A stretch of DNA of 64,000 bases from Thermoanaerobaculia bacterium (GTDB taxonomy: Bacteria > Acidobacteriota > Thermoanaerobaculia > Multivoradales > Multivoraceae): positions 129,847 through 193,846 of the forward strand of contig JAJEHN010000008.1 in NCBI GenBank assembly GCA_022823665.1. Reading direction: 5' to 3'. The position numbers and the translations under genes were made by a program. Shown one piece after another: positions 11,732 through 40,412 of this stretch (its first letter is position 1; each line of letters starts with the position of its first letter). The notes below the pieces were generated by a model that worked only from the letters and a program-made list of their open reading frames with translations, had not been told where the DNA came from and did no database searches.

Positions 11732-11733
11732 GC

Positions 11734-12987
11734 TCAGGCTCCTTCCTCTGCCGGCAGAATCCGCACTCCGCGGTGCCCCGCGAGGTCGACGTAGCTTGAC
11801 CGGTCCACCCGGCCGTTGAGGTCCTGGCTCACGCAACCGTGCTCGACGTAGTCGACAACCTCCCTGCCCTCCGGCGTCTCCGGATCGACCGCTCGCACCG
11901 CGCCCTCCGGGTTCAGGCGGCAGGGCACGAAGCCGAACTCGGCCGGTTCGCCGCCGGCGAGCTTGACGAAGCCCAAGGCCGTCATCCGCGCCTCCGGGTG
12001 CAGCGGCATCAGCGGCCAGCCCTTGCGCGGCGCCACGGCGTAGGTGTCCGCGCTGTCGTCCAGCACGGACATGGCGGCGACCACCTCCGGCGGCCACTTG
12101 TCGACGCGGACGTCGAAGACGAAGTGGCCGAGCCCGTAGAAGACCGGCCGGCCACGGTACCACTCCATGCCGCGCAGCACATGCTGGTGATGGCCCACGA
12201 CGATGTCGACGCCTTCGTCGATGCACAGCCGGGCCGTGCGCAGCTCGTGGTCGGTCAGGTGGTAGGCCTTGAAGTGATCACCCCAGTGGAAGCTGGCGAC
12301 CACCAGGTCCGCCTGCTCCTTCGCGCCAGCGATGTCGGCCTTGAGATTGTCGTGGTCGGCCTTGTCCGGCACGGTGGAAACGCGCGGGTCGGCGCCGGGC
12401 GTGTAGGCGTCGTCGATCAGGTCCTGGTAGAAGTTGTGCGCCCTGAGCGGCGCCAGCCCGGCGAGGCTGCCGCGGGCCTCGTAGCCCTTGGGAAAGACCG
12501 ACGCGTAGCCCAGGAACGCGACCTTCAGGCCGCCCGCCTCGAGGACGGCCGGCGCGCGGGCCTCCTCCAGACTGCCGCCCGCGCCGCAGGTGGCGACGCC
12601 CTGCTCGTTGAGGCGCCGCCGAGTCTCGAGCATCGCGTCGCGGCCGCCGTCGAGAATGTGGTTGTTGGCCAGCGACAGCACGTCGAAGCCCACGCGGCTG
12701 AAGACATCGAGGTTGTGCGCCGGCGGCACCAGGGCCAGCCCGGCACTGGGCACGGACTGCGGATGGTCGGAGTACGGCCCCTCCAGGTTGCCGAACAGTA
12801 GGTCCGGCGCGGCGAGGAGATCGAGCACCGGTGCGTATGCCTCGTCCGGGTCGTCGCGGTCGGTCAGCAGGTCGCCGACGAAGCCGAGGAGAGCATCGCC
12901 GTCGGCGGCTCGAACCGAACGCGGGCCGCCAAGCAGGCCGAGCACTCCGGCCGCCGCACCCGACTTGAGGAATTGCCGTCGATTCAT
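11734..12987 (-). CDS. CapA/PgsA-family metallophosphatase-like protein with Tat signal
   Basis: Start MNRRQFLKSGAAAGVLG (twin-arginine motif). CapA motifs LANNHILDGG and VVGHHQHV. Confidence 0.8.
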   Translation of the reverse strand: MNRRQFLKSGAAAGVLGLLGGPRSVRAADGDALLGFVGDLLTDRDDPDEAYAPVLDLLAAPDLLFGNLEGPYSDHPQSVPSAGLALVPPAHNLDVFSRVGFDVLSLANNHILDGGRDAMLETRRRLNEQGVATCGAGGSLEEARAPAVLEAGGLKVAFLGYASVFPKGYEARGSLAGLAPLRAHNFYQDLIDDAYTPGADPRVSTVPDKADHDNLKADIAGAKEQADLVVASFHWGDHFKAYHLTDHELRTARLCIDEGVDIVVGHHQHVLRGMEWYRGRPVFYGLGHFVFDVRVDKWPPEVVAAMSVLDDSADTYAVAPRKGWPLMPLHPEARMTALGFVKLAGGEPAEFGFVPCRLNPEGAVRAVDPETPEGREVVDYVEHGCVSQDLNGRVDRSSYVDLAGHRGVRILPAEEGA

Positions 12988-13048
12988 GTCTCTTCCTCCC
13001 GGAACCTCGTCCGTGCGCCTTCTCCGTGCCTCGGTGCCTCCGTGCCCG

Positions 13049-14197
13049 TCAGCGTTCGATCCACTCGCCGCAGATAGCCACCGCTTCGGCGAGCTTGTCC
13101 GCCTGGCCGATGTAGTAGTGGGTAGCCCCCTCGATCTCGTGGAACTCCCTGTCGCCGTGGGACACGGCGGCGTAGAGCCGCCGCGCGTGGCTGGGCGTGC
13201 ACGCGTCGTCGGCGCCGTTGTTGACCACCAGGACCGGAACGCTGATGTCCGCGGCGCACGCGAGGCCGTCCGCGTTCGACTTCTCCAGGCTCCACTGCGA
13301 CAGCCAGCTCCGCAGCGTCGTGAAGCGCGCAAGACCCGTCGGGCCGTTGTTCACGGTCTCCGGGTCGCCGAGGTAGCACGAGCCCGGCTGGCGGTCGTTC
13401 GGGTCCACCGCCGGATCGAGCCAGCGCGGGTCGGCCATCGTGCCCTGAACGACGAAACAGTGCTCCTTCTGCGCGCCGGCCCGATTTCGGAGATGCTCGA
13501 ACTCCTCCATCGCCCACGCCGTGATCCGCTCGTTGCGCGCGACCTGGGCCCGCCGGTAGCGCTCGAGAAACTCGGTCGAGTACGGCGGCTGGTTGGGATT
13601 GTCCGCGTTGTACAGATCGAGTTCCGGGTCCTTCCGCTGCGGTTCCCGTTCGTCGAGGATCGAGGCGTCCATCCACTCGGTGAGCGTCCCCGCGCGGCTG
13701 ATGTGCGCGGCCAGCAGCATCACCCCGTCGGCGGGAATCAGCTCCGCCGCCGTCAGGTCGTACGGGTCGCCGGCCGGCGTGTGGGTCACCGTCGGCCGCT
13801 CGGCCTGCTGCTGGTAGTAGAGCGACAGCGAGCCGCCGCCGCTCCACCCCCCGAGCAGGACGCGCTCGTAGCCGAGCTCCTCCTTCGCGTAGCGGATCGT
13901 GCGTCCCAGGTCGACCACGCACTTCTCCATGATCAGCGCCGTGTCGTTGCCGCGATACCGCCCGTTGGCGTAGATCACGTGGTGGCCGGCCGCCGCCAGC
14001 GCCCGGACCAGCGGCAGCCAGGCGCCGCCGCCGATCGGGTGGTTGAAGACGACGACCGTCTTCGAGGCGCGCTCGCGCGGCCGCAGCAGGTGGCCATCGA
14101 AGAAGACGAAACCGCCCGGCCCGCCGTAGACGTCGCCGAAATCCGCGTCCTCCCGAAAGAAGACGGGAAAGGGGATCCGATCGTAGGGCTCCATCAT
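13049..14197 (-). CDS. alpha/beta-fold hydrolase
   Basis: Start MMEPYDRIPFP (internal to the track's 566-aa ORF). Nucleophile elbow GGWSGGG; His/Asp downstream. Confidence 0.75.
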   Translation of the reverse strand: MMEPYDRIPFPVFFREDADFGDVYGGPGGFVFFDGHLLRPRERASKTVVVFNHPIGGGAWLPLVRALAAAGHHVIYANGRYRGNDTALIMEKCVVDLGRTIRYAKEELGYERVLLGGWSGGGSLSLYYQQQAERPTVTHTPAGDPYDLTAAELIPADGVMLLAAHISRAGTLTEWMDASILDEREPQRKDPELDLYNADNPNQPPYSTEFLERYRRAQVARNERITAWAMEEFEHLRNRAGAQKEHCFVVQGTMADPRWLDPAVDPNDRQPGSCYLGDPETVNNGPTGLARFTTLRSWLSQWSLEKSNADGLACAADISVPVLVVNNGADDACTPSHARRLYAAVSHGDREFHEIEGATHYYIGQADKLAEAVAICGEWIER

Positions 14198-14211
14198 CGT
14201 CGCGCGTCCGG

Positions 14212-15171
14212 TCAGAACTCGACCGCGGGAAGCGCTGCCTCGATCTTCTCCCGGTGGGGTTCCAGGTGTTTCGGCAGCGAGAGGATCCGCCCCAAGGAGT
14301 CGATCTCCTCGTCCACAGTCCAGCCCGGGTCGAGATTCGACAGCTCCATGTTGATGCCGCCGGGGACGGTGAAGTACGTCGAGTGGAACCAGCCGCGGTC
14401 CCGGGCCCCGGTGACGATCAGGCCCGCGCCGGCGAGGATTCGCGTCCACTTCTCCATGTCCCCGACGCTGTCGACCGTCAGCGCGATGTGGTGCAGGCCG
14501 CCGAGACCGTGCCGGCCCCACGGCCCGTCGCGCCGCTCGACGACATCGATCAGCTTGCCGGGCTCGTTGCCGCCGACCGCGAGACGTGTCCGGCTTCCCT
14601 CGGTGGCGACCACCTCGAAACCGAGGACGCCGACCAGGAACTGAACGGTCAGTTCGGGAATGCGCGGCGCGAGCGTGGCATGGTGGAAGCCGCGTATCTG
14701 GTGCTCGTCGGGAAGATCGGCCAGTTCGGGCATCCGGGCGTCCTCGCACCCGACGAGTTCCGACGAGATGCCGTCGAAGTCCCGGAAGTGGAGCACCGGA
14801 TCGCCGAACCGCGCCGGACGATCGGTGCAGACGCAGCCCGCCGCGGTCAAGCGCCCACGCCAGTACTCCAGGCTTCCGGGCGAGACGGAGTAGCTGACGT
14901 CGGTGATCGAGCCCCGGCCCTCGACCGTCTTCGGCATCGGAACACCCTCGAGGATGATGTTCGTCATGATCGTCCCCGGACTGCCGAGGCGGTCGCCGAA
15001 GAAGAAGTGCCAGCCGGAGGTGGGGTTCTCCTGGTTGCAGGTTCTCTTGATCAGCCGCAGGCCGAGCACGTCGCGGTAGAACCGGAGGTCGTTGGCGGCG
15101 GAACCGACCAGCCCGGTGATGTGGTGGATGCCCCGGATCGGTGACGGACCGCGTCTCCTGACTTCAGCCAT
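14212..15171 (-). CDS. two-domain VOC-superfamily ring-cleaving (extradiol-type, hydroquinone/MhqO/LinE-like) dioxygenase
   Basis: Two tandem glyoxalase/VOC modules (HHITGLV... and HHIALTV...). Product family inferred from architecture. Confidence 0.7.
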   Translation of the reverse strand: MAEVRRRGPSPIRGIHHITGLVGSAANDLRFYRDVLGLRLIKRTCNQENPTSGWHFFFGDRLGSPGTIMTNIILEGVPMPKTVEGRGSITDVSYSVSPGSLEYWRGRLTAAGCVCTDRPARFGDPVLHFRDFDGISSELVGCEDARMPELADLPDEHQIRGFHHATLAPRIPELTVQFLVGVLGFEVVATEGSRTRLAVGGNEPGKLIDVVERRDGPWGRHGLGGLHHIALTVDSVGDMEKWTRILAGAGLIVTGARDRGWFHSTYFTVPGGINMELSNLDPGWTVDEEIDSLGRILSLPKHLEPHREKIEAALPAVEF

Positions 15172-15201
15172 GCAATCTCCTTCTCAACGTGCAGCAGACG
15201 G

Positions 15202-16101
15202 ATGTTACGTTCCCGGCAAATGAGCGACTCATCTCCGGCGACGCGACTGCGGGCCCTCCTCGACGCCCCCGGCCTTCGGGTCATGCCCTGCTGCTTCGAC
15301 GCGCTCTCCGCGCGGCTGATCGAGCAGGCCGGCTTCGAGTTGACCTTCATGAGCGGCTTCGCCGTGTCCGCCAGCCGGATCGGCATGCCGGACACCGGCC
15401 TGATCTCCTTCGGCGAGATGCTCGACCAGGGCCGCAACATCTGTGCGGCAACGGGGCTGCCGGTGATCGGCGACGGCGACACGGGTTACGGCAACGCGCT
15501 GAACGTCAAGCGCACGGTCAGGAGCTATGCCAGCGCCGGCTTCGGCGGCGTGATGATCGAGGACCAGGAGGCGCCCAAGCGCTGCGGACACACGCGGGGC
15601 AAGCGCGTCGTCTCCCGCGCGGAGGCCCTGTCGCGGGTGGGCGCCGCGGTGGACGCCCGGGACGAGGGCGCCGACATTCTGATCCTGGCCCGCACCGACG
15701 CCCGGGCCACCGACGGCCTGGACGAAGCGATCGCCCGCTGCCAGGCGTTCGCCGGCATCGGCGCGGACATCCTCTTCCTCGAGGCCCCGCGGTCGGAGAG
15801 CGAGATGGCCGCGTTCTGCGAGGCGGTCCCCGGCCCGAAGCTGGCAAACCTCGTCGAGGGCGGCGACACGCCACTGCTGCCGCCGGCCCGGCTCGAGGAG
15901 ATCGGCTACAAGATCGCGGCCTACCCGCTGACGCTCCTGTCCGCCGCGACCGCGGCGATGCTCGACGCCCTGCAAGCCTTGGGGAACAGCGAGCGGCCTG
16001 AGCACATCCTGGATTTCGAACGGCTGCGCGACATCGTCGGCTTCGAGGACTACGATGCCGAGGCCCAGCGCTACCGCATCGACGACGAGGACGAACGATG
16101 A
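15202..16101 (+). CDS. isocitrate lyase/PEP mutase family enzyme (carboxyvinyl-carboxyphosphonate phosphorylmutase / methylisocitrate lyase-like)
   Basis: PEP-mutase family motifs (VMPCCFDALSARL, GDGDTGYGN, KRCGH). The start could instead be the ATG at 15220. Confidence 0.8.
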   Translation: MLRSRQMSDSSPATRLRALLDAPGLRVMPCCFDALSARLIEQAGFELTFMSGFAVSASRIGMPDTGLISFGEMLDQGRNICAATGLPVIGDGDTGYGNALNVKRTVRSYASAGFGGVMIEDQEAPKRCGHTRGKRVVSRAEALSRVGAAVDARDEGADILILARTDARATDGLDEAIARCQAFAGIGADILFLEAPRSESEMAAFCEAVPGPKLANLVEGGDTPLLPPARLEEIGYKIAAYPLTLLSAATAAMLDALQALGNSERPEHILDFERLRDIVGFEDYDAEAQRYRIDDEDER

Positions 16102-17822
16102 CTCGACACAGGAACGACGTCGACGTGCTGATCGTCGGGGCCGGCCCGGTCGGCCTCTGCTGCTCCCGGCTCCTCAGCAGGCTCGGCGTGTCCAACCGGG
16201 TGCTGGAGCGCCGGCCCGGCCTCCACACGGCGCCGCAGGCGCACGTCGTCTCGTCGAGGACGCTCGAGGTCTTCCGGGCCGCGGGCATCGACGCCGGGAA
16301 GCTGGTCGCGGCCGCCACGCGGCGGGAGGACCAGGGCGCGGTCCTCTGGGTCCACACGCTGGCCGGCCCGGTGCTCGGCCGTCTCGCTCTGGGCACGCCC
16401 GAGCGCATCATGAAGACGCTGTCGTCGACGCCGGCGCCCACCCTGAACATCCCCCAGCATCGCCTGGAGCCGATCCTCTTCGAGGCGGCCCGCGACGCCG
16501 GAGCGACGGTCGACTTCGAGGTCGAGTGGCTCGGCGCCATGCAGACCGAAGCCGGCGTCGTCTCGGAAGCCCGGGACCACGCGAGCGGTGAGACCCTCGA
16601 GTTCCGCAGCCGCTACGTCCTCGGCTGCGACGGCGCGGGCAGTCCGGTACGCCACGCGCTCGGCATCGGCATGCAGGGACCGGCCCACGTGCAGAGCTAC
16701 CTCTCCGTCTTCGTCGAGGCCGAACTCCGGCACGTCGTGAGGGAGCATCCCGGCCTTCTCTTCTGGCACCTCGATCCGCTCGAGCCCGCCGTCTTCATCG
16801 CCCACGACCTCGACTCGACCTGGATCTACATGCATCCCTACGATCCGGAACGCGTGAAGCCCGAGTCCTTCACGCCCGAGCGCTGCCGCCAGCTCGTGGC
16901 GAACGCGATCGGCACCGACGCCGACTTCGAGGTCCGCGAGACCGGCTTCTGGCAGATGACCTGCCAGGTGGCCGACCAGTACCGCGACCGGAGGATCTTC
17001 CTGGTGGGCGATGCCGCGCACCGCTTCCCGCCGACGGGAGGCATGGGCATGAACACCGGCATGGCCGACGCCTTCAACCTCGCCTGGAAGATCGCGGCGG
17101 TCTGCGCGGGACGCGCCGGCGACCCGCTGCTGGCCACCTACGACCCGGAGCGGCGACCCGTGGCCGCGGCGGCCGCTCGACAGAGCCTGGAGAACCATCT
17201 GAAGATGCTCGAGGTCGTCGAGGCGCTGCGGATCGAGCCCGGACTGCCACCCGAGGAGGCTCGCTCCGAGATACGGCGGCTGCCAGAGCAGGAGGACCGC
17301 CGGCGGGCAGTCCAGGCCGCCATCGACGCGCAGGGGGAGCACTTCGACATGATGGGACTCGATCTCGGCCATCACTACGAGGACGGCGCCCTGCTTCCCG
17401 ACGGAACACCACCGCCGCCGCCCGCGATGCGCGCTCTCGACTTCGTTCCCTCCACCCGGCCGGGATGCCGCCTGCCCCACGCGTGGGTGGAGTTCGAGGG
17501 CCGAAGGGTCTCCACCCTCGACCTCGTCGATCCGACCGGACTGACCGTCATCTGCGGCGCCGCGGGCGCGCGCTGGATAGCGGCTGCCGAGCCCCTCGGA
17601 CTGCGAGTCCACGCGATCGGCGAGGGCGCGGCGGTGGGAGATTCGGCAGGCGAGTGGGCGGCGGTTGGCGGCGTCGGCCCCGAGGGCGTCGTCGTCGTTC
17701 GCCCGGACGGTCATGTCGCCTGGAGAAACGCGGATGGAAGCTGCGAGCCAGGTCCCGCGCTCGAGGCCGCGCTAGCAGCCATCTACTGCACCGCCGACGA
17801 CGGCCAGACGGAGGCGCCATGA
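16098..17822 (+). CDS. FAD-dependent aromatic monooxygenase (PheA/TfdB-like hydroxylase)
   Basis: GxGxxG FAD fingerprint (VLIVGAGPVGL); DG and GD FAD motifs (GCDGAGSPVR, LVGDAAHRFPPTGGMGMNTG); ATGA overlap with the upstream gene. Confidence 0.85.
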   Translation: MTRHRNDVDVLIVGAGPVGLCCSRLLSRLGVSNRVLERRPGLHTAPQAHVVSSRTLEVFRAAGIDAGKLVAAATRREDQGAVLWVHTLAGPVLGRLALGTPERIMKTLSSTPAPTLNIPQHRLEPILFEAARDAGATVDFEVEWLGAMQTEAGVVSEARDHASGETLEFRSRYVLGCDGAGSPVRHALGIGMQGPAHVQSYLSVFVEAELRHVVREHPGLLFWHLDPLEPAVFIAHDLDSTWIYMHPYDPERVKPESFTPERCRQLVANAIGTDADFEVRETGFWQMTCQVADQYRDRRIFLVGDAAHRFPPTGGMGMNTGMADAFNLAWKIAAVCAGRAGDPLLATYDPERRPVAAAAARQSLENHLKMLEVVEALRIEPGLPPEEARSEIRRLPEQEDRRRAVQAAIDAQGEHFDMMGLDLGHHYEDGALLPDGTPPPPPAMRALDFVPSTRPGCRLPHAWVEFEGRRVSTLDLVDPTGLTVICGAAGARWIAAAEPLGLRVHAIGEGAAVGDSAGEWAAVGGVGPEGVVVVRPDGHVAWRNADGSCEPGPALEAALAAIYCTADDGQTEAP

Positions 17823-27345: not shown

Positions 27346-28491
27346 ATGCAGGGCCGGGCGCCGACGCGCTTCCACACCCTCCTCCTGCCGGCGATCATCG
27401 CGCAGTCGATGATCATCGGCGGCGGCTACGCCACGGGCCGGGAGGTCGTCGAGTACGCCGGCCGCTTCGGGAACCGGGGCTGGCTGGCCGTCGCGATCAT
27501 CGCCGTCTGCTTCTCGATCGTCATGGCGCTGGCCTTCGAGCTGGCGCGGCTGGCCGGCGCGTACGACTACAAGGCCTGGAGCCGGAACCTGGTGGGGCCG
27601 TTCTGGTGGCTGGTCGACATCCTCTTCCTGACCATGATGATGCTCGTCATCGCGGTGATGACGGCGGCCATCGGCGAGGTCCTCCAGCAGACCCTCGGCT
27701 TTCCGAAGCCGCTCAGCCTGGTCCTCGCCCTCGCATGCGTCGGTTTCCTGTCGTGGCGCGGGTCCGGCTTCATCGAACGGGCGAAGACCTGGGGCTCGGC
27801 GGCCCTCTACCTGGGCTACTGCGCCTTCTCGGTCCTCGTGCTGACGGCGCCGGTCGGGGAAGGCGCCGCGGCCGCTCAGCCACCGCCCGGCTCAGAGGCC
27901 GGCACTCTGGAGGTGACGATCGCCGCGCTGCTGTATGTCGCCTACAACGTCGCCGTGGTGCCGGCCGTCCTCTTCTGCCTGCACCGTCAGACCCGTCGCA
28001 GCGAGACGTTCACATCCGGGATCCTCTCCGGCCTCGCGATGACGATTCCGTTCGCCCTGACGCTCGCCTGCCTCCTGCGGTTCGCCCAACCTTCCGTGAT
28101 GGAGGCGGAAGTGCCCTGGCTGCGGCTGATCACCTCCGCCGCCGACGGACGCGCCGGCGGCGCGGCGCTCTGGATCGCCGTCTTCGGCGTGGTCGCCGGC
28201 TGGACCCTCGTAGAGACCGCCGTCGGCTCCATCCACGCCCTCGTCCACCGGGTCGAACGCAACCTGGGCGACCTGCCCCGCCGGTGGCGGCCCGCCTCCG
28301 GCGAACTCACGCCGGGGCAGAAAGCGCTGACCGCCGTGCTCGTCCTCGTGGCCGCCGCCGCGCTTTCCACGGTCGGCATCATCGACCTCGTCGCCCGCGG
28401 CTACGGCACGATCGCCTGGGGCTTCATCGCCCTCATCATTCTGCCGCTGTTCGTCGTCGTGCCATACCGAGCATTCAAGGCCGCCGGCTGA
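27346..28491 (+). CDS. polytopic membrane protein, YkvI-like putative transporter family
   Basis: About 11 TM segments. N-terminal IIGGGYATGREVVEYAGRFG resembles YkvI/amino-acid-permease-like family members. Family assignment is tentative. Confidence 0.55.
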   Translation: MQGRAPTRFHTLLLPAIIAQSMIIGGGYATGREVVEYAGRFGNRGWLAVAIIAVCFSIVMALAFELARLAGAYDYKAWSRNLVGPFWWLVDILFLTMMMLVIAVMTAAIGEVLQQTLGFPKPLSLVLALACVGFLSWRGSGFIERAKTWGSAALYLGYCAFSVLVLTAPVGEGAAAAQPPPGSEAGTLEVTIAALLYVAYNVAVVPAVLFCLHRQTRRSETFTSGILSGLAMTIPFALTLACLLRFAQPSVMEAEVPWLRLITSAADGRAGGAALWIAVFGVVAGWTLVETAVGSIHALVHRVERNLGDLPRRWRPASGELTPGQKALTAVLVLVAAAALSTVGIIDLVARGYGTIAWGFIALIILPLFVVVPYRAFKAAG

Positions 28492-29985: not shown

Positions 29986-30822
29986 ATGACCAACCGAACC
30001 GTACTCATTACCGGCTGCTCGACGGGCTTCGGCAAGCTCGCGGCGAAGACCTTCCGGGCCAACGGCTGGAACGTCGTGGCCACCATGCGCTCGCCCGAGA
30101 AGGAAACCGACCTCGCCGGGCTCGACGGAGTTCTCGTCACGAAGTTGGACGTGAAAGACCCGGAGAGCATCGATGCCGCGTTCGAGCGCGGCATCGCCGA
30201 CTTCGGCGCGATTGACGCGGTCGTGAACAACGCCGGCTACGGCAGCAACGCGCTCTTCGAACAGTCGCCCGATGCCTCCGTCCGCGACATCTACGAGACG
30301 AACGTCTTCGGCCTGATGAACGTGATGCGCCGCGCCCTGCCCGACATGCGGGCGCGGGGCGCCGGCTGCATCGTCAACGTGACATCGATGGCGGGCCTGA
30401 TGGGCCTCCTCGGCAACTCGGTCTACTCGTCGTCGAAGTTCGCGGTCGAGGGCCTGACCGAGGCGCTCGCGCTCGAGTACAAGCCACTCGGCATCCGCAT
30501 CGTTTCCGTCGCGCCCGGCGCCTACCTGACGACCGCGTTCGGCGACAACACGGACAACTACATCGAAGCAGGCGACATCCAGCTCGTCGAGCACTCGGAG
30601 AAGCTCCGCGACCACTTCGCCACGATCGTCTCAGGCGGCAAGCCGCAGGACCCGCAGGAAGTGGCCGACAGGATCTACGAATGCGTGACCGCGGACGACG
30701 TCCCGGTCCACAACCCCGTCGGCGCCGATGCCGAGCGGCTCAGCGGCCTGATCGACAGCCTGCCATCGCGACAAGCGTTCGTCGCCGCGATGGAGCAGAT
30801 GCTGCTACCGCCGGCCGGCTAG
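29986..30822 (+). CDS. SDR family oxidoreductase
   Basis: TGCSTGFG cofactor motif; YSSSK catalytic motif. Confidence 0.85.
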   Translation: MTNRTVLITGCSTGFGKLAAKTFRANGWNVVATMRSPEKETDLAGLDGVLVTKLDVKDPESIDAAFERGIADFGAIDAVVNNAGYGSNALFEQSPDASVRDIYETNVFGLMNVMRRALPDMRARGAGCIVNVTSMAGLMGLLGNSVYSSSKFAVEGLTEALALEYKPLGIRIVSVAPGAYLTTAFGDNTDNYIEAGDIQLVEHSEKLRDHFATIVSGGKPQDPQEVADRIYECVTADDVPVHNPVGADAERLSGLIDSLPSRQAFVAAMEQMLLPPAG

Positions 30823-30903
30823 CGCTAGCGTTGGCTAGCGGAAGCAGCGCTCATTTGACAGAAGCCGGTAACCAACGCCTGAGACCTGGTCGGCGTGGAG
30901 TCG

Positions 30904-33900
30904 TTATGGTCCTCGTCGCGCCCCTGCAGTCGAGTGCTCAAACTTGAAACGCACCGAGCCGCGACCGATCTGCTTGAAGCGGTTGCGCGTGTCGTCGCCC
31001 AACGGATTCGGCAACTCAAGGACCATCCAGCGTTCAGGCGAGAAAACGAAGGGAACATAGAGGATCCGATAGCGTCGACGGCCACGCTTCGGCATCCTGG
31101 CCGCCACTCGCATCTCGTTCGGCGTCAACTCAAACTCGCCCGTATCCCCAACCGACGACTTGACTTCATACATCCACTCTGCCTGCGGCGTCTTGACGCA
31201 GAAGTCGTACCCCGCCGCGTCATCGCCTTCACTCCCTCCGAAGAAGTGGACTCGATTCGTTGAAACCCAACAGGTCTCGTCCACGACGTCGCGGTGTCGC
31301 CGTCTCAGGTACTGGAACGCCAGCCACTCGCTGGCGAGCCCCATCGCCCGCCGCTGATCCTCGTGTGGCCTCTTCGCGCGCCGAGTGCCACCGCCAGGCC
31401 CAGCGCCCCTTGTCTGGCCGCCAGCTCGCACTTCGGCCAACCTGGGCCGGCTGCGGCTGCGTGCCCACCAACTATCGTCACGCCTTAGACTCTCCTCGGC
31501 CACTTCCAGGAACGCATGAGGGAAAGTGAGATCTCCTGTATCGAGCCTCGTCCCGCCGAAGCAGACACTGCGTCTATCGACAATCATGCGCTGCCGTTCC
31601 GTCTCTCGTCGCCGTTCCTCCTCGTCGACGGCGGATTGGTCAATCCCAAGTGTCGCGGTGTCCAGCGTTCGCGGCATCGTCTCAGGCCAACAAGCGGAGC
31701 GGAGACAGAGTTCGGGGAGCTGAGCGTCGTCAATCCGCTCGAAATCGAGGAGTCCGGCGTTCTCAAGGTGCCGCGCAACGGCTTGCGGCTCCTTGCTCGA
31801 CCAGTGTTCAGGGACAGGGGCACCAGCGCGGTGACACCAAGCGAGGACGACAGAACTCGCACGAGATGCGAAGTTGCGCACCGCCTTGCGATTCGCTTCC
31901 GACACACTCCGCAACGACTGGAGACTGACATCAACGTCCTCTCCGAGCACCTCGTCGAGTAACTCAAGAACATGGCTCTCGACGATCCGCTGCTCCAAGG
32001 TCTCCTTCGTCTGAATCCACTCGGGATCGAACGCAAGGAACGTGAGCTTCTTACGTTCCACGTAGGCTCCGAGGTCGCGCCCTTCTCGGAAGTCGGCTAC
32101 GTGGCGCCGTCGCAGTCGATCGACGATCGCAGGTCCCATTCCCCGGAGATACGCGTCGTACAGAGACCGAAGATGGGCCTCGTTCGAGAGCGGCCGTTCG
32201 TCCAATGCCAGCAGCGTGCGGTTGAACCGCTTGTAGTCGAGATCAAGCACCCTCCGCACCGCCGCACGATCCGAAGACTGCTCACAGGCGCTAAGCCAAT
32301 TGATCGGCGCGAACTCCAAAGGGGGAAACCGTGAACAGAGCCAGTCGCGCACGTCGAACTCGGCCTTGCTCCGCTCCGCGTCGTCCTCAAACTGTCGAGC
32401 AAGCGCCGTACCGCCGAAGTACGCGACGACGGGAGTCAGCAGGTGCAGAACATGCCCCAGGTCTGTTTGCAGGGCAGCACGATGCTCCTGCAGGGTCTGC
32501 GCGTCACATCGAAGCGCCTTTGCGAGCGCCTCGTCGGACGGAGCATCAAGCCCAACCCCCTCCTGCCCTAGGGCGAGCCGCGGAAGGAGCGACTCGAGAA
32601 ACCGCAACCGAGTGTCTATCAGTCGCGAGATCGGTCGGGAAAGATCCCTTCCCAGCGTCGTCCACGTCAATGGCATGCGATCCGACAGGACTAGGGTGGG
32701 GAACTCGGGATGCTCAAAGCCGTAGAACTCCAGCCTGTCCTTCGGCGACGGTCCCGCCTCGTCGACGACGAACTTGATCGTCCGGCAGTGTCTCACTCTG
32801 ATGGCCCTAACGCGCCGTTCGACGGTGATAGGGAGCACGCCGCGCTCGAGCTGCTCGGCGAGCATCTGATGGCCAAGGATCACCGTCTCCGGCAACCACT
32901 CCAACTCGATAGACGTGAGGAACGGGTCGGCCGCACTGGGCACGAAGGGCTCGCCGTCCACCAACAGCTTCACGTCGGTCCCGCCCAGTTGGCGGGGTAC
33001 GAACCGGCCGGTCGCGTCCAGCTGATCGGCGATTCTCTCGCTCGAGGCGTCGCCGATGTCGAGCAACGCGTGCCCGGCTGAGGAGAGCATGCTCGCCTCG
33101 AGCGTGTTTCCACCTTGGGCGAGAATCACCGTGGTAGGCGTCGCAGCATCGCCGCTCAGATTCTCGTATCGGCCGTCCCGGCTCACTGCGAGACTCAAAT
33201 CAGCGGGCAAAACGGCATCCGTTTGCGCAACGTCGAACCAGGCTCGACGGTACTCCCTGCGGAATGCAGGCCTGTCGTGCCCCGCCAGGGCTGGAGCTAC
33301 TGCCGCAAGCACTTCCAGGCGCTCGGTCGCGGTTCCCTCGTCGTGCCAATCCCGAAGCCCGAGGGTACCGAACACCAGTTTCGAGAGGTCCTCACTGCCC
33401 TCAACGAGACCTGCCAGAGCGTCCGGAAGGCGGTCCACGAATCGCGGCGGACGTTGCCTCCTCGTCTTGGCAGCCCAGCACTCGTGGGGGCTTCGGAAGG
33501 CGGGTTCCTCGCGGGCACCCACGGCAACCCAGGCTCTCGACCGGAGAAATGTAGCGAGCGGCGTCGGAACGTTCCGCTTGTCCCAATAGGGCTGAGTTCG
33601 CTCGAATCGGCCAACGTCGAATGTCAGGAACTCAGCGCCTTGCGCTTCCAGGTGCCTGAATGCAAGCTCGTGGAACATCTCCTTCGCGCCTTCGGGCAGC
33701 TCTTCGTGCTCCATTTGGCCAGGAAACCGCCACGCCTCTCCCTTCCTTTGGTATACGGTGTAGGGATGCCGGAAGGATGTGAGCGACGCCTCCTTGCACC
33801 AGTCCTCGTCAAGGGCCTCTTCGGCGACCCCTTTTCGAACGAACTGGCCCCACCTCCACCCCTCGCCACGCGCTAGCATCTTGCCCGGAACGGGCCTCAG

Positions 33901-36186
33901 CCCGTCCGAAACGCCAAGCAGCGCCAGAAACTCGACCCACCGGCGCTTGCTGCCACCTGGGACCATCGGCCAATCTGAGAAGTCCACGAGAAGTCCCTCA
34001 CGGGCCCGTCGGCAGTCCGGCGACGTGTCGGTCGCCTCCATCAGGAAGTTCTCGAGGATCCGGCCTACAGGCGTCCAGGAAGACGAATACGCCGCCTGAG
34101 TCGCCGGTTGCCAACCGCTCAGCGTCGGTACCCACAGTTCGGCGTTCCGAAGCGCATCCTCTATGGTGCCTCCCTTCGCCCCCCAAACTCTGAACGCCCA
34201 GGTCAAGGCCTCCCGACGACGATTGTCATTGGCTCTGGCGCCCAAGGCGGAGGCGAGCCCGGACAAGGCTTCCACCGGGTCGTACTCGCGGACGAGGTCG
34301 GCCTCGAGCAACGCGTTCAGCGTCTCCCGCCGGAACCGGATCTTCTCGTCGACGAAGCGGTAGCGTCGGGCGAGCGTCGCCGGCGGCAAGGGAACGCCAC
34401 CCTTCGTACGCGTGCGTCTGGGTGTTTCGGTGCGCACGAAGACGCCGCGCCCCGAGGCACCATCCACTCCTGCCGCCCGCAGTCTCTTCGACCGATCCAG
34501 CATGATCCGCTTCCCGGCCAACGCCCGGAGATTCGCGCCGGCAGCCCTGAACACCGGTCCGAGGTCATTGTAGAAGCGTGACCAGGTCCGCGGCTTGGCG
34601 TTCCTTTCTGCAAGAGACCGCGCAAAGGACTCGGACCATTCGGCGAGACGCTCGCCGGACGGCCGCAGATTCCAGTGAATCCGCTTTGCCATGGCTTCGA
34701 GGCGCTCACGCCGGCCTTCGTCAACCACCGTCGACACGAGCTGCGCGCCGGCTCGTCTCGCGACCTCCAAGGCCTTCATCAACGAGAATCTCCCCGCCGG
34801 CCAGACGTGGACTCCAGACAGACTTGACCAGTGGCAACGGTCGACCGGTATCACCGGAACAACGCGTGCGTCCTTCAGCGAACTGCCCATGCCATCCAAG
34901 GCGGCATCCAGCTTTCCGGCGTGTGGACCAGTCCAGGCGAACAGATCGAAGACAGCGCGCTGAAGAGTCGGCGTGTCCGCCTTTCTGGCGATGTGCAGTG
35001 CCGCCCGGGCACTCGCCTCGGCAGCTGCTTCCAGCAGCACCGCGTTCAGTGGGAGGTCGAGGTCCGCCCTGCGGCGGTCGATTCCCGCGAAGAATGGCGC
35101 GTCGAGATGGCCAAGAAGGGGCGCAGGCGCCGCATCGCCCATAGGCAGGAAGTTGTAGAGGCGGCCCTCGGCCACCGCCCCGTGGGAAAGGCCAACAGCG
35201 ACCGAAACCGTCGGCTGGCCCTTCCAGTCGAGCCAGCGCTTGAGCTGTGGTGCTCTCGATATGCTTTCCTTGACCGCCCTGAGTACGAGCGCCTTGTCCA
35301 CTTCGCGTTGGACAACGAGGAAGCGCCGATCCTGGCCGACGCCGACCTCATACAGTCGGCAGCCTGTGGTGCCCGGCACGTCGCGAAATGACCTCTGGCT
35401 GCGAGTCAACCGACGCCGATAACGCCGCCCGTCCGGCGTCTTCACGTCGATGCGGAAGTCCCCGATGCGGTCCAGGAATAGCAAGAGAGGCACATCAAAG
35501 TCCGCAAGCGCCCGCGTTTGGCGCTCCGCCAACGTGATCGCGTCGGGCGCGGACAAAGGCACGACGATGACCGTCGCGTAGCCTCGGCGGGCATAAGCAA
35601 CAACCTCCTCGGGCTGTTCGACGAGTGGCTGAGGGACGAGATAGCGTGGAACCGTATGGGCGACTTCGCGGGCCGTCGTCGCGTCAAGACGCCTAGCGAG
35701 AAGGAGCTTCTCGATCTCGCTCACGGCGGCGAACCTGAAGCAATAGCCATCGAAACGTGTCGACTCGTCCATGCCGACGCGTGAGAAGATGCGTACGTCG
35801 TCTGTCAGCGCTTCAATGCTCCTGAAGCCGAGACCCTTGTTGCCGATGCCCTCGCCGATCTTCTTGGCCGTGGTCGCAAGGTTCTCTATGGCTTCGACAT
35901 CCCTCCTACGGAAGCCGGTGCCTCCGTTGGCCACATACAGGGTGCCCTCGGTCTCGGAGCGCACAACCAGCTCTACGGCAATCCGCCCCTCGCCTTCGTC
36001 CCGATGCGCGTCGTGCGCGTTCTGTATCAGCTCGTACAGAACCCGGTCGCCGTACTCCGTCCCGACCACTTCGTTCAGGTTGCGGAGACTCTCGTAGACC
36101 TTGAGTTTCTTCCCGTGCGCATCCACGGCGTGGTCCAGCACATTGCGGACTTGCCTGTTCAGATCCTGGGCGGGGGCGTGGGTCAT
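30904..36186 (-). CDS. 1760-aa NO VEIN-like protein: N-terminal sacsin/MORC-type GHKL (HATPase_c_3) ATPase + long uncharacterised middle region + C-terminal NOV_C/DUF3883 (restriction-endonuclease-like) domain
   Basis: Single uninterrupted ORF. Bergerat N-box YELIQNAHDA and G2 box GIGNKGLGFRSIEA at the N-terminus. C-terminal DUF3883 signature (GLASEWLAFQYL...GYDFCVKT...YEVKSS...FELTPNEMRVA...YRILYV). No Walker or helicase motifs seen. Confidence 0.85.
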   Translation of the reverse strand: MTHAPAQDLNRQVRNVLDHAVDAHGKKLKVYESLRNLNEVVGTEYGDRVLYELIQNAHDAHRDEGEGRIAVELVVRSETEGTLYVANGGTGFRRRDVEAIENLATTAKKIGEGIGNKGLGFRSIEALTDDVRIFSRVGMDESTRFDGYCFRFAAVSEIEKLLLARRLDATTAREVAHTVPRYLVPQPLVEQPEEVVAYARRGYATVIVVPLSAPDAITLAERQTRALADFDVPLLLFLDRIGDFRIDVKTPDGRRYRRRLTRSQRSFRDVPGTTGCRLYEVGVGQDRRFLVVQREVDKALVLRAVKESISRAPQLKRWLDWKGQPTVSVAVGLSHGAVAEGRLYNFLPMGDAAPAPLLGHLDAPFFAGIDRRRADLDLPLNAVLLEAAAEASARAALHIARKADTPTLQRAVFDLFAWTGPHAGKLDAALDGMGSSLKDARVVPVIPVDRCHWSSLSGVHVWPAGRFSLMKALEVARRAGAQLVSTVVDEGRRERLEAMAKRIHWNLRPSGERLAEWSESFARSLAERNAKPRTWSRFYNDLGPVFRAAGANLRALAGKRIMLDRSKRLRAAGVDGASGRGVFVRTETPRRTRTKGGVPLPPATLARRYRFVDEKIRFRRETLNALLEADLVREYDPVEALSGLASALGARANDNRRREALTWAFRVWGAKGGTIEDALRNAELWVPTLSGWQPATQAAYSSSWTPVGRILENFLMEATDTSPDCRRAREGLLVDFSDWPMVPGGSKRRWVEFLALLGVSDGLRPVPGKMLARGEGWRWGQFVRKGVAEEALDEDWCKEASLTSFRHPYTVYQRKGEAWRFPGQMEHEELPEGAKEMFHELAFRHLEAQGAEFLTFDVGRFERTQPYWDKRNVPTPLATFLRSRAWVAVGAREEPAFRSPHECWAAKTRRQRPPRFVDRLPDALAGLVEGSEDLSKLVFGTLGLRDWHDEGTATERLEVLAAVAPALAGHDRPAFRREYRRAWFDVAQTDAVLPADLSLAVSRDGRYENLSGDAATPTTVILAQGGNTLEASMLSSAGHALLDIGDASSERIADQLDATGRFVPRQLGGTDVKLLVDGEPFVPSAADPFLTSIELEWLPETVILGHQMLAEQLERGVLPITVERRVRAIRVRHCRTIKFVVDEAGPSPKDRLEFYGFEHPEFPTLVLSDRMPLTWTTLGRDLSRPISRLIDTRLRFLESLLPRLALGQEGVGLDAPSDEALAKALRCDAQTLQEHRAALQTDLGHVLHLLTPVVAYFGGTALARQFEDDAERSKAEFDVRDWLCSRFPPLEFAPINWLSACEQSSDRAAVRRVLDLDYKRFNRTLLALDERPLSNEAHLRSLYDAYLRGMGPAIVDRLRRRHVADFREGRDLGAYVERKKLTFLAFDPEWIQTKETLEQRIVESHVLELLDEVLGEDVDVSLQSLRSVSEANRKAVRNFASRASSVVLAWCHRAGAPVPEHWSSKEPQAVARHLENAGLLDFERIDDAQLPELCLRSACWPETMPRTLDTATLGIDQSAVDEEERRRETERQRMIVDRRSVCFGGTRLDTGDLTFPHAFLEVAEESLRRDDSWWARSRSRPRLAEVRAGGQTRGAGPGGGTRRAKRPHEDQRRAMGLASEWLAFQYLRRRHRDVVDETCWVSTNRVHFFGGSEGDDAAGYDFCVKTPQAEWMYEVKSSVGDTGEFELTPNEMRVAARMPKRGRRRYRILYVPFVFSPERWMVLELPNPLGDDTRNRFKQIGRGSVRFKFEHSTAGARRGP

Positions 36187-36295
36187 GCGAGAAGCGCTGT
36201 CCTGTCAACCTGCCGGAGCGCACGGCCGCCGATACGGAATCTCCAAGGCTCTCGGCGCCGAGGGAGAGAGGCTCCTCACACCGGCACCACTGACC

Positions 36296-36781
36296 TCAGT
36301 CGTCGCTCCTCTTGTCGAGGAGCATGTAGACCACGAACGCGATGCGGTCTTTTCGCTGGGCATCCCTGAACTTGGCTACGGCCCGCTCGGCCAAACGGAT
36401 CGTCTGGAGGACATCCGACTTGATGAGGCGCTCGGCGGGGTCGTAGTCCGCCCGGTGGCGAGCTCGCTGGAGGTTGATGAACTCCAGCGCGACGTCCTTG
36501 AGTCCTACCGGGAAGCCCATCTGCTTCTTGCCGGTGATCTCCTTGCACCGGCTCTTCGCCTGACCGTGATTCAGGGCGCGGTACGTCTGCCGCCAAGCTC
36601 GCTCGCTCCGGTCCGACTGGTCTCCACCGACCAGCAGGTCCGCGCCGGACGCGGCGACACAGTGGAACAAGGCGTAGTAGGCGGTGCTGACGGCTCGTCG
36701 CAGGTCTGTCTCTCGAGGCCGACCAGCGCCCTGCTGGGTGACTAGCGAGCGGGCTGTCCTGATGAAGTCATCCGGCTTCAA
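36296..36781 (-). CDS. HEPN-domain protein (PF05168-like)
   Basis: RAVSTAYYALFHCVAA matches the HEPN helix-2 signature (SRAYYAMFHAAKA). C-terminal ...NLQRARHRADYD matches the HEPN C-terminal R/H...DY region. Overlaps the upstream small gene by 14 nt. Confidence 0.6.
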   Translation of the reverse strand: MKPDDFIRTARSLVTQQGAGRPRETDLRRAVSTAYYALFHCVAASGADLLVGGDQSDRSERAWRQTYRALNHGQAKSRCKEITGKKQMGFPVGLKDVALEFINLQRARHRADYDPAERLIKSDVLQTIRLAERAVAKFRDAQRKDRIAFVVYMLLDKRSDD

Positions 36782-37097
36782 CGATGCGCACCTGCTCGCG
36801 ATACCAATCCCAGTCCGCCCTGTCGCTGAAGTGCGGTGCCAGATCGGCGTCCATCCCTTCTTCGCGCAGCCTGTGCAGCACTCGTCTCGTCAGGCCAAGA
36901 GTCCAATCCGGGTCGAGTGCCTCCTGGTCTCCTCGAAACACGATGTCCACTCGAAAGTAGGGATCACCGTCGTGATCGACGAGTTCCCTGACCACGACCG
37001 GGCCGAACTCAAAGGCGTCCCCGAAGTGTCCGGAGAGATCCTCGTGGATCAACCTCTTGATGGAACTCACAAGTTGGCGGTTCATCTCGGCAGTCAT
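36768..37097 (-). CDS. small hypothetical protein (109 aa), upstream overlapping partner of the HEPN gene (possible divergent MNT-like/antitoxin partner)
   Basis: GGAGGAG RBS about 13 nt upstream of the ATG. Position and overlap are typical of MNT-HEPN/TA pairs, but the canonical GS...DxD nucleotidyltransferase motif is not evident (has FGDAFEF...DHDGD). Confidence 0.45.
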   Translation of the reverse strand: MTAEMNRQLVSSIKRLIHEDLSGHFGDAFEFGPVVVRELVDHDGDPYFRVDIVFRGDQEALDPDWTLGLTRRVLHRLREEGMDADLAPHFSDRADWDWYREQVRIVEAG

Positions 37098-37287
37098 GTC
37101 AGACCCAACTCCTCCGTCCCAAGAGCGGCCGCGCTCCTAGCTGTCGCGCGACCGCGGGACTCACCCCGTAACCGAATCCTACATCCGGCCTGCCCCAGTG
37201 ACACGCCTCCGACTACCCGTCGATGACCATCCCGCAACACCCCGCGAACCCGTCCGCGGCCAACTCACTGCCCGCCGGACCGCCCCA

Positions 37288-39603
<2,316 letters not shown>

Positions 39604-39791
39604 TCAGCGGCAATAGAATCTCCAGGTTCATCACGATCTCCGGGGAGGAGCCAGAATGACCAGCACGACCGGCACCACGTCTCGCACCTGGTCGCCCGTT
39701 AGTCTGTGCCGGCACCGGCGCCGTCGCCATCGGCGCTCTGCTCCTGCTCGCCGCCGCCCTGGGCTACCGCACGGGCCTGCTCGGGCTCGGG

Positions 39792-40412
39792 ATGTCCTTC
39801 ACCGTTCTCCGGTGGGGCGCTCTCATCTCGGCAGGCGCGGCGGGCATCGCGTTGATCGCGACGGCTTGGGCCATGTTCCGGCGCCTGCACTGGCAGAACG
39901 TCGCGGCCGGCCTGGTGGCTGCCGCACTGGGAGCGGTTTGCTACATGGTCCCGGCAGGGCAGCAGGCGCTTGCCCGATCGGTCCCGCCGATCCATGACAT
40001 CACGACCGACACCGACGATCCGCCGGCCTTCGTCGCGATTCTCCCCCTCCGGGCCGACGCCCCGAATCCTCCGGAGTACGACCCCGCAGTTGCCGAGCAG
40101 CAGCGCGAGGGATATCCGGATCTCCGTTCGGTGATGCTGGACGCACCGCCCGCCGAAGCGTTCTCCCTGGCGCTGGCCGCAGCCGGGGCAATGGGGTGGG
40201 AGCTGGTGGCTGACGACGCCGCGGCGGGACGCATTGAAGCAACCGACACGACCTTCTGGTACGGCTTCAAGGACGACGTCGTCATTCGGGTGCGCGGGGA
40301 TGGCGCGGGCAGCCGCATTGACGTGCGATCAAAGTCGAGAGTGGGTCGCAGCGATGTCGGCGCGAATGCAGAGCGCATCCGCAAGTACACTGCCCGTCTC
40401 GCGCGCGACTGA
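39792..40412 (+). CDS. DUF1499 domain-containing membrane protein
   Basis: FWYGFKDDVVIRVRGDGAGSRIDVRSKSRVGRSDVGANAERI matches the DUF1499 core; N-terminal TM helix. Confidence 0.65.
   Translation: MSFTVLRWGALISAGAAGIALIATAWAMFRRLHWQNVAAGLVAAALGAVCYMVPAGQQALARSVPPIHDITTDTDDPPAFVAILPLRADAPNPPEYDPAVAEQQREGYPDLRSVMLDAPPAEAFSLALAAAGAMGWELVADDAAAGRIEATDTTFWYGFKDDVVIRVRGDGAGSRIDVRSKSRVGRSDVGANAERIRKYTARLARD

Follow-up and report, generated by a model that had tools for sequence, protein, structure and literature searches.

What does a protein of 1760 residues do in an acidobacterial genome when its two ends resemble an ATPase and a nuclease and its neighbours are metabolic genes? The question is posed by a gene on the minus strand of the window (the whole stretch of 64,000 nucleotides of Thermoanaerobaculia DNA analysed here), at 30904..36186, which is complete as a single uninterrupted frame with an ATG start. 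A first-pass annotation, made from the letters alone, had described its product as a sacsin-type GHKL head and a DUF3883/NOV_C restriction-endonuclease-like tail around a middle devoid of Walker or helicase motifs, and had considered the bacterial versions of this architecture uncharacterised. The frame and its length are confirmed, and every motif string cited there has been located in the protein: VLYELIQNAHDA (aa 49-60) and GIGNKGLGFRSIEA (aa 113-126) in the head, and GYDFCVKT (1659-1666), YEVKSS (1673-1678), FELTPNEM (1685-1692) and YRILYV (1706-1711) in the tail. The existence of more than 100 full-length homologues (~1770 aa, 54-69% identity, aligned nearly without indels) and of an identical 1760-aa product in public collections indicates that the gene is not an assembly artefact. 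Across 29 full-length relatives, with identity down to 24%, 62 positions are invariant, and these concentrate in the ATP site, in a loop around R371 and in the nuclease site.

Going by its sequence, the gene is a member of Tiamat, an already named single-gene anti-phage system, whose protein is TmtA. PADLOC holds nine TmtA models, and the window protein matches one of them, PDLC03971, over its full length (E=0, 1669 bits, aa 4-1750 on profile positions 12-1779 of 1782); its head, middle and tail each match that model when searched separately. In the supplement of Millman et al. (bioRxiv 10.1101/2022.05.11.491447), TmtA is given as the sole gene of Tiamat with the domains "Hsp90, DUF3684, DUF3883", the homologue from Bacillus cereus FORC_005 (gene 2641244160, 1590 aa) is marked "Verified" and the second one tested, from Enterobacter, carries an "x" in the same table, which we take to mean not verified. 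The bacterial versions of the architecture therefore have a name, since TmtA is the Tiamat gene and defence was verified for the B. cereus homologue, and the earlier view that they were uncharacterised is not supported. Regarding the mechanism or structure of Tiamat, nothing past surveys was found in the literature.

How much of the verified protein is then recognizable in the window protein? The best model for the N-terminus of the B. cereus TmtA is PDLC03964 (E 1.4e-138), which also matches the head (E 3e-26) and the tail (E 6.6e-13) of the window protein, and a direct comparison with the first 399 residues of the B. cereus protein gives 26% identity over aa 44-255 (E 2e-9). In contrast, the middle of the window protein (aa 482-1599) gave no match to PDLC03964 in a profile search. 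Regarding the domain set of Millman et al., the Hsp90/sacsin-like head is present, DUF3883/NOV_C is present after a marginal pass (Pfam PF13020, 23.5 bits where the gathering score is 22.1; E 5.8e-5), and DUF3684 gives no Pfam match at E<=1. A homologue search with the B. cereus N-terminus returned only fragments of at most 687 aa. The verified TmtA and the PDLC03971 subfamily thus appear to share, as far as the profiles detect, the head and the tail alone, and because only these two regions unite the TmtA "family", the phage protection obtained with B. cereus TmtA is not automatically valid for the PDLC03971 subfamily.

The head is a two-domain module, whose first part (aa ~30-235; 35482..36099, minus strand) is a Bergerat-fold ATP-binding domain resembling sacsin SR1. 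The sacsin-type assignment is upheld by the NCBIfam model NF047352, "sacsin N-terminal ATP-binding-like domain" (66.1 bits, cutoff 50), and by fold comparison, in which sacsin SR1 is the closest fold; it was also the sole match, and a weak one, when PDB sequences were searched with the protein itself and with a 36-sequence profile. The Pfam models stay below their gathering scores on the head (SACS, E 6e-6; HATPase_c, E 1.7e-4; HATPase_c_3, E 7e-3). The last of them, the MORC-type PF13589 proposed as a check in the first-pass annotation, reaches 16.8 bits where 25 are required for gathering; support for the head comes instead from the models specific to sacsin and from the comparison of folds.

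Each residue of the ATP site has its counterpart in the list of ATP-binding residues of Hsp90 and sacsin. Motif I, VLYELIQNAHDA (36007..36042, minus strand), contains the ExxxNAxD pattern as YELIQNAHDA, with E52 as putative catalytic base, N56 as Mg ligand and D59, all three invariant in the 29 sequences down to 24% identity and equivalent to E33, N37 and D40 of Hsp90 and to E116, N120 and D123 of sacsin (PMC9880540). Motif III, at the end of the lid (GIGNKGLGFRS; 35818..35850, minus strand), follows the GxxGxGF pattern of the Bergerat fold; G115, N116, K117, G118, G120, F121 and S123 are invariant in the same set, as is the preceding lid residue K108, and their equivalents are G118, G121, G123 and F124 of Hsp90 and K180 of sacsin (PMC9880540). 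The lid (aa 107-116) is modelled with low pLDDT. Motif II departs from the canonical DxGxG, whose Asp contacts adenine: it reads YVANGGTGF (35911..35937, minus strand), where ANGGTGF carries Asn87 in place of the usual Asp, with N87 and G89 invariant and F92 nearly so. The sacsin counterparts of N87 and F92 are Asn160 and Phe164, and all three sacsin SR1 domains share the Asp-to-Asn substitution (PMC9880540); at the sequence level, motif II of the window protein is the sacsin-type variant and not the canonical motif.

The second domain of the module (aa ~236-400; 34987..35481, minus strand) is transducer or Hsp90-middle-like. It holds the conserved loop GRLYNFLPMG...FFAGIDRRRADLDLPLN (aa 341-381; 35044..35166, minus strand), in which P348, F365, R371 and N381 never vary, even in relatives with only 24% identity, although the pLDDT of the loop is 30-41, and this block also aligns with B. 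cereus TmtA. R371 is the candidate catalytic arginine, and it may be the counterpart of R380 in Hsp90 and R474 in sacsin. Would such a head work as an ATPase? ATP binding by the sacsin-type domain is presented as debated in PMC9880540, and both this debate and the missing Asp of motif II have been counted against the ATPase reading. TmtA could, in turn, be used to settle whether the sacsin pocket hydrolyses ATP, because its head has the unusual substitutions of that pocket.

At the opposite end, the NOV_C/DUF3883 domain, of the PD-(D/E)XK nuclease type, occupies aa 1609-1750 (30937..31362, minus strand), in agreement with the restriction-endonuclease-like tail read initially. The active-site block GYDF...YEVKSS...TPNEM (31111..31212, minus strand) contributes D1661, E1674, K1676 and E1691, accompanied by E1620 in the first helix; none of the five varies among the 29 sequences, even at 24% identity, which favours a working nuclease. 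In the NOV_C domain of HmaA, mutating the same D/E/K/E quartet abolished Mn-dependent nicking and defence, and this domain nicked supercoiled plasmid DNA and spared linear lambda DNA (PMC11232893).

The family-specific middle (aa 401-1590; 31417..34986, minus strand) is mixed alpha/beta to ~aa 990, beta-rich at ~998-1170 and, at ~1175-1580, large and all-helical, and is followed by a Gly/Arg-rich disordered linker (aa 1591-1608; 31363..31416, minus strand; pLDDT <50 at model residues 691-702), the sole notable indel site across the family. The absence of Walker and helicase motifs stated at the outset is supported. No solved-structure neighbour was found for these ~1200 residues, Foldseek of the C half against the PDB gave no match at E<=1e-3, and a profile-profile comparison of nine segments detected no internal repeats in the protein (maximum probability 2.7%); from aa ~600, most of the middle is modelled with confidence.

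Comparison with a close relative (L075) shows where the gene changes. The flanks are 96-98% identical to those of the window, whereas tmtA is only 63-93% identical (73% is the identity given for the window and L075 alleles), and dS amounts to 0.58 in tmtA and to 0.01-0.14 in the flanks. As tmtA is far more diverged than its flanks and its dS is several-fold higher, the comparison points to an allele replacement at this locus. Weak codon bias is not the cause of the high dS, since the low-GC3 neighbour orf109 has a dS of only 0.014. Positive selection in situ as the source of the divergence is ruled out by the contrast in dS and by the dN/dS of tmtA (0.1-0.5, staying <0.55), which indicates purifying selection. 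The replaced stretch is mostly the middle and the 3' part, the 3' two-thirds of the middle having been exchanged between near-identical genomes, and for this reason the middle and the 3' part of tmtA are singled out as a candidate specificity determinant. A bolder reading, which we put forward tentatively and would not yet bet on, is that the middle has a new fold and confers specificity: it would recognise the invader and link the ATPase cycle, of sacsin type, to nicking by the NOV_C domain. On this reading, Tiamat-type proteins would also be the prokaryotic stock of the eukaryotic sacsin/NO VEIN ATPase (and NOV_C) modules. It draws on that exchange and on the lack of a solved-structure neighbour for a region mostly modelled with confidence. 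Were it true, an allele given the middle of another would defend against different targets, and the disputed ATPase chemistry of sacsin could be studied in TmtA as a tractable bacterial model.

What, then, does the protein do? The gene probably encodes TmtA, the one component of a Tiamat-type system that defends against phages (mobile elements). The two-domain GHKL module would bind and hydrolyse ATP (by means of E52/N56/D59, N87, K108, GxxGxGF and the candidate R371), and ATP-driven closure or dimerisation would serve as a switch, as in the GHL ATPases MutL, MORC, SMCHD1 and Hsp90. The middle would be a scaffold that senses the invader, the cue being DNA or a phage product. The switch would then allow the C-terminal PD-(D/E)XK domain, through D1661/E1674/K1676/E1691, to cleave or nick DNA, which could be that of the phage (direct immunity) or of the host (abortive infection, the phenotype reported with the NOV_C-bearing HmaA). 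Dimerisation, DNA binding and the coupling between ATPase and nuclease are presumed for TmtA.

In the window, the neighbours of tmtA are metabolic genes (SDR, TetR, KatG, beta-lactamase-fold) and none is a defence gene, which has been counted against the defence reading. Phage protection by this subfamily is predicted from the surroundings of its homologues: one (P0002) lies among BREX PglX/PglZ, PLD and DpnII-like genes, another (P0004) among the GmrSD, integrase and T4SS genes of an ICE, and others adjoin type IIG R-M, Mokosh-like, mad3/8-like ATPase and SoFic genes. Eight full-length copies are plasmid-borne, and three occur on IMG/VR contigs. Conserved partner genes were sought and rejected, as an all-versus-all comparison of flanking ORFs over 33 full-length loci and the window revealed no neighbour common to more than five loci, nor any that kept a constant position; tmtA is a stand-alone, single-gene unit with no obligatory partner. 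Two small ORFs upstream of it are kept in close relatives, and are not part of the system because distant homologues lack them alongside.

The same surroundings bear on another explanation, namely that plasmids or other mobile elements, and not phages, are the main target of the protein, or that it is addiction/stabilisation cargo of such elements, with the same ATPase-gated nuclease enzymology. Full-length homologues are carried by large conjugative plasmids and by the ICE with its T4SS genes and integrase, and the NOV_C domain of HmaA nicks supercoiled plasmid and not linear lambda DNA (PMC11232893). However, anti-phage systems typically ride on mobile genetic elements as well, and we consider this explanation unlikely, if worth keeping in mind. 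Might the gene instead be silent in this genome? Its GC3 of 0.74 makes it a low-GC3 islet among surrounding genes at 0.907 +/- 0.027, and such a composition marks tmtA as horizontally acquired (foreign) at this locus. No tRNA was found in the window, nor convincing direct or inverted repeats flanking tmtA, nor was an integrase noticed among the window ORFs examined. Upstream of tmtA, there is no obvious Shine-Dalgarno sequence and no promoter-like site in a scan for the sigma-70 consensus only, the promoter/terminator scan being uninformative. The foreign GC3, the lack of these upstream signals and the broken copies found in the genomes of several relatives would suit a horizontally acquired, unexpressed or decaying passenger, yet the 5.3-kb ORF is intact with all its catalytic residues, two related genomes keep the katG-orf109-orf161-tmtA order, each with an intact 1761-aa tmtA, and the dN/dS speaks of purifying selection, so this is improbable. 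Still less plausible is a housekeeping enzyme for DNA repair or chromosome organisation, in the manner of a GHL ATPase resembling MutL, MORC or SMCHD1 and bringing along an endonuclease, as homologues are patchy over phyla at 55-69% identity, GC3 is strongly deviant, the allele is swapped between close relatives, several genomes have interrupted copies, and others are found on plasmid, ICE and prophage with defence-gene neighbours. That the protein is a chaperone driven by ATP, or a factor of protein quality control, in the manner of sacsin and with a vestigial or regulatory nuclease tail, is hardly credible, given the nuclease quartet and E1620 invariant to 24% identity, the absence of DnaJ, UBL and HEPN domains and of SIRPT-like repeats, and the defence or mobile context of the homologues.

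The defence reading of TmtA does not overturn current views, and the locus is an annotated, testable example and not a new kind of system. What it provides is a domain map for the largest Tiamat subfamily, with a two-domain sacsin-like ATPase module, an Hjc-like NOV_C nuclease tail and both predicted active sites invariant over deep divergence. The B. cereus FORC_005 TmtA is likewise a one-gene system of similar size, with an Hsp90/sacsin-like GHKL head, ~250 residues after it and a DUF3883/NOV_C tail, both ends being detectably homologous; it differs in its subfamily (PDLC03964 instead of PDLC03971), in its ~1100-aa middle, with no detectable sequence similarity to that of the window protein, and in its Bacillus host, as opposed to the high-GC Gram-negative or acidobacterial hosts of the window subfamily. 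Sacsin is a eukaryotic protein of 4579 aa with three SIRPT repeats and UBL, DnaJ and HEPN domains, and it lacks a PD-(D/E)XK nuclease. Compared with its repeat unit (SR1/HSP-NRD plus HSP-MRD; human SACS, PDB 5v44), TmtA has one head, no repeats and a nuclease tail, and the window protein is not a sacsin proper, having none of those Pfam matches and no internal repeats. NO VEIN (NOV/EMB2597), an Arabidopsis nuclear protein and the eponym of Pfam NOV_C, is a much longer eukaryotic developmental factor that carries a GHKL-type ATPase region and a C-terminal NOV_C in one very large polypeptide, which makes it a fair architectural analogy. The DNA-acting GHL ATPases (MutL/PMS1, MORC2/3, SMCHD1, GyrB/ParE, Topo VI-B) differ from TmtA in its motif II Asn instead of Asp, in its unrelated middle and PD-(D/E)XK nuclease type, and in its sub-threshold MORC-type HATPase_c_3. 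Finally, HmaA of the Hma system of Halomonas meridiana also fuses an N-terminal ATPase to a NOV_C with the same D/E/K/E quartet and an Hjc-like fold, a Mn-dependent DNA nickase needed for defence with an abortive-infection phenotype (PMC11232893), but its motor is an SF2 Snf2 helicase instead of a GHKL ATPase, it is half the size, and it is usually encoded with HmaB and HmaC.

tmtA is a single ORF of 1760 codons on the minus strand (30904..36186) of a window with a G+C content of about 68%, and all the peptides quoted in the first-pass annotation are found in its product where that annotation had read them. Its domain calls, i.e., a sacsin-type GHKL ATPase head and a NOV_C/DUF3883 tail, were also correct: the head matches NCBIfam NF047352 (“sacsin N-terminal ATP-binding-like domain”) with 66.1 bits for a cutoff of 50, and the tail passes the Pfam NOV_C (former DUF3883) gathering score of 22.1 with 23.5 bits. 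The Pfam families SACS, HATPase_c and HATPase_c_3 match the head, all of them under threshold, and because the proposed PF13589 (HATPase_c_3) check fails in this way, it is fold comparison and the sacsin-specific model that carry the assignment of the head. In a metagenome-assembled copy (L001:1-4927; GCA_022820205.1, JAJEFX010000041.1), corresponding to window positions of about 30904-35830, the contig ends within tmtA, which explains why the recorded product has 1552 aa, begins at an internal GTG (V209) and is without the Bergerat ATP-binding domain. Other public records hold the identical full 1760-aa product.

Against PADLOC-DB, TmtA matches the model PDLC03971 (TmtA) over aa 4-1750 (E=0, 1669 bits). 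Tiamat is a single-gene system, consisting of TmtA, from the screen of Millman et al. (bioRxiv 10.1101/2022.05.11.491447), whose supplementary table includes two tested Tiamat genes: one from Bacillus cereus FORC_005 (gene 2641244160, 1590 aa, “Hsp90, DUF3684, DUF3883”), marked as verified, and one from Enterobacter (1429 aa), marked “x”, which is read here as not verified. Since the bacterial versions have been named and one of them verified, the earlier statement that they are uncharacterised is out of date; this is a known kind of gene, and the claim of novelty is not right. Later surveys list the Tiamat mechanism as unknown, while noting that it is enriched among Actinobacteria and has a PD-(D/E)XK domain, and our literature searches found no mechanistic or structural paper on it. 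How is tmtA related to the verified gene? The comparison covers residues 1-399 of the B. cereus protein, which align with aa 44-255 of the window TmtA at 26% identity (E 2e-9) and which, among the PADLOC models, score best against PDLC03964 (E 1.4e-138). When the window protein was scanned in three pieces, this same model was matched by the head (aa 43-404, E 3e-26) and the tail (aa 1606-1720, E 6.6e-13), and the middle (aa 482-1599) matched no PADLOC model besides its own, PDLC03971. Given that the family was built from gene clusters alike in domain organisation, size and defence score (methods in bioRxiv 10.1101/2022.05.11.491447), these sequence matches make tmtA very probably a Tiamat member as computationally defined, in a subfamily other than that of the verified protein.

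The homologue search returned 910 relatives, the best 120 of which share 54-69% identity with TmtA and, with few exceptions, have 1750-1810 aa; a 36-sequence alignment shows uniform conservation from end to end and hardly any indels. A query with the middle only (aa 400-1599) against 1.8 billion representatives gave 614 clusters and, among the 150 matches listed, the full-length ones have 1740-1840 aa and match at the same position. Full-length relatives with 25-66% identity occur in named genomes of, among others, Vicinamibacterales, Binatia, Paracoccaceae, Bordetella, Methylocapsa, Ensifer, Rhizobium, Caulobacter, Streptomyces and Terrabacter. Copies of full length are also found on eight plasmids and on three IMG/VR contigs (L069-L071; 42-50 kb, 39-57% identity). 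Another full-length relative (28.5% identity) lies at 11377-16599 of MT835712.1 (H16), an unannotated 20.7-kb record from human faeces titled “Bacteriophage sp.”. At five loci (L004, L007, L030, L035 and L036), tblastn matches cover the whole protein and the longest ORF has just 516-1489 aa; these copies are frameshifted, pseudogenised or assembly errors, and the complete Methylocapsa polymorpha RX1 genome has one of them.

The neighbours of tmtA in the window encode an SDR, a TetR regulator, a hydroxyacid dehydrogenase, beta-lactamase-fold proteins and KatG; neither a tRNA nor a clear flanking repeat was found around it, and no integrase was noticed among the window ORFs examined. Between the SDR gene and katG there is a low-GC3 stretch (30904-37097) comprising tmtA (GC3 0.74) and two small upstream ORFs on the minus strand, orf161 (36296-36781, 0.83) and orf109 (36768-37097, 0.71), which overlap by 14 nt. 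Compared with 0.907 +/- 0.027 for 30 other window genes, these values mark the three as a foreign islet of roughly 6 kb. Neither small ORF matches Pfam or NCBIfam even at E<=10; the homologues of orf161, about 157 aa in length, number over 2200, and two of them carry the JGI name “UPF0332 family”, a HEPN-type family; the two ORFs may form a toxin-antitoxin-like pair. The pair adjoins tmtA in two close relatives and is absent next to distant homologues. No neighbour is conserved across the 33 homologous loci, as expected for a single-gene system. Beside other homologues there are type IIG R-M systems, Mokosh-like helicases, mad3/8-like ATPases and SoFic; BREX PglX/PglZ, a PLD nuclease and a DpnII-like enzyme surround the homologue P0002 (69% identical), and GmrSD, an integrase, T4SS genes and HigB surround the homologue P0004. 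Elsewhere in the window, a 381-aa ORF (27346-28491, plus strand) has a gene-like GC3 of 0.93, is called as a gene in the metagenome-assembled copy too, and has no meaningful match in Pfam or NCBIfam.

The order katG, small ORF, UPF0332-like ORF, tmtA is preserved in two related metagenomic contigs. When window 30043-40277 is compared with a close relative (L075:1-10239), the KatG, orf109 and orf161 proteins are 97-98% identical and the SDR side shows about 96% DNA identity, whereas the TmtA proteins are 73% identical. The drop is sharp and confined to tmtA (flanks 96-98%), with DNA identity of 83-93% in the first ~1.8 kb and 63-77% over most of the remainder. Nei-Gojobori dS is 0.01-0.14 in the flanks and 0.58 in tmtA, rising from 0.19-0.36 in codons 1-600 to 0.84-0.98 in codons 800-1590, values near saturation and hence approximate; dN/dS in tmtA is 0.12-0.52. 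Faster evolution of tmtA in place was set aside, since dS itself is raised and orf109, its low-GC3 neighbour, has a dS of 0.014. The simplest reading of these alignments is that the allele, or its 3' two-thirds, was replaced by recombination; tmtA would have an exchanged allele or be a mosaic gene. Such an exchange offers a concrete way to approach specificity; the middle of TmtA is without structural relative.

TmtA joins an intact sacsin-type two-domain GHKL module and an intact NOV_C nuclease to a large family-specific middle, in a single-gene organisation with a mobile, defence-associated distribution. Two overlapping AlphaFold models cover aa 1-960 (mean pLDDT 77) and aa 900-1760 (mean pLDDT 88), and an alignment of 29 full-length relatives taken from the homologous loci, the most distant of them at 24% identity, has 62 invariant positions, which fall into three clusters: the ATP site (E52, L53, N56, D59, N87, G89, K108, G115, N116, K117, G118, G120, F121), a loop at aa 341-381 (P348, F365, R371, N381) and the nuclease (E1620, D1661, E1674, V1675, K1676, E1691). 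Those kept in the middle are mostly tryptophans. The block aa 339-374 (window 35065-35172) is among the most conserved of the family, yet its pLDDT is 30-41; it may fold only upon nucleotide binding, dimerisation or substrate contact. R371, in this poorly modelled loop, would by inference be the counterpart of Hsp90 R380 and sacsin R474. In the proposed mechanism, the middle would sense the invader, and the head would bind and hydrolyse ATP and thereby change conformation or dimerise. This switch, of the kind found in MutL, MORC, SMCHD1 and Hsp90, would license the NOV_C nuclease, and the outcome may be either cutting of the phage DNA or abortive infection. An ATPase-gated nuclease in this form is a tentative proposal, a little short of an even chance; the overall explanation, combining Tiamat membership and mechanism, is moderately probable. 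In the NOV_C domain of HmaA, mutating the catalytic set ended both the Mn-dependent nicking of supercoiled DNA and defence (PMC11232893). The ATP-site residues of TmtA correspond to the Hsp90/sacsin ATP-binding list, and the peculiarities of sacsin are present as well, namely Asn in place of the motif II Asp, the Phe that follows it and the lid Lys (PMC9880540).
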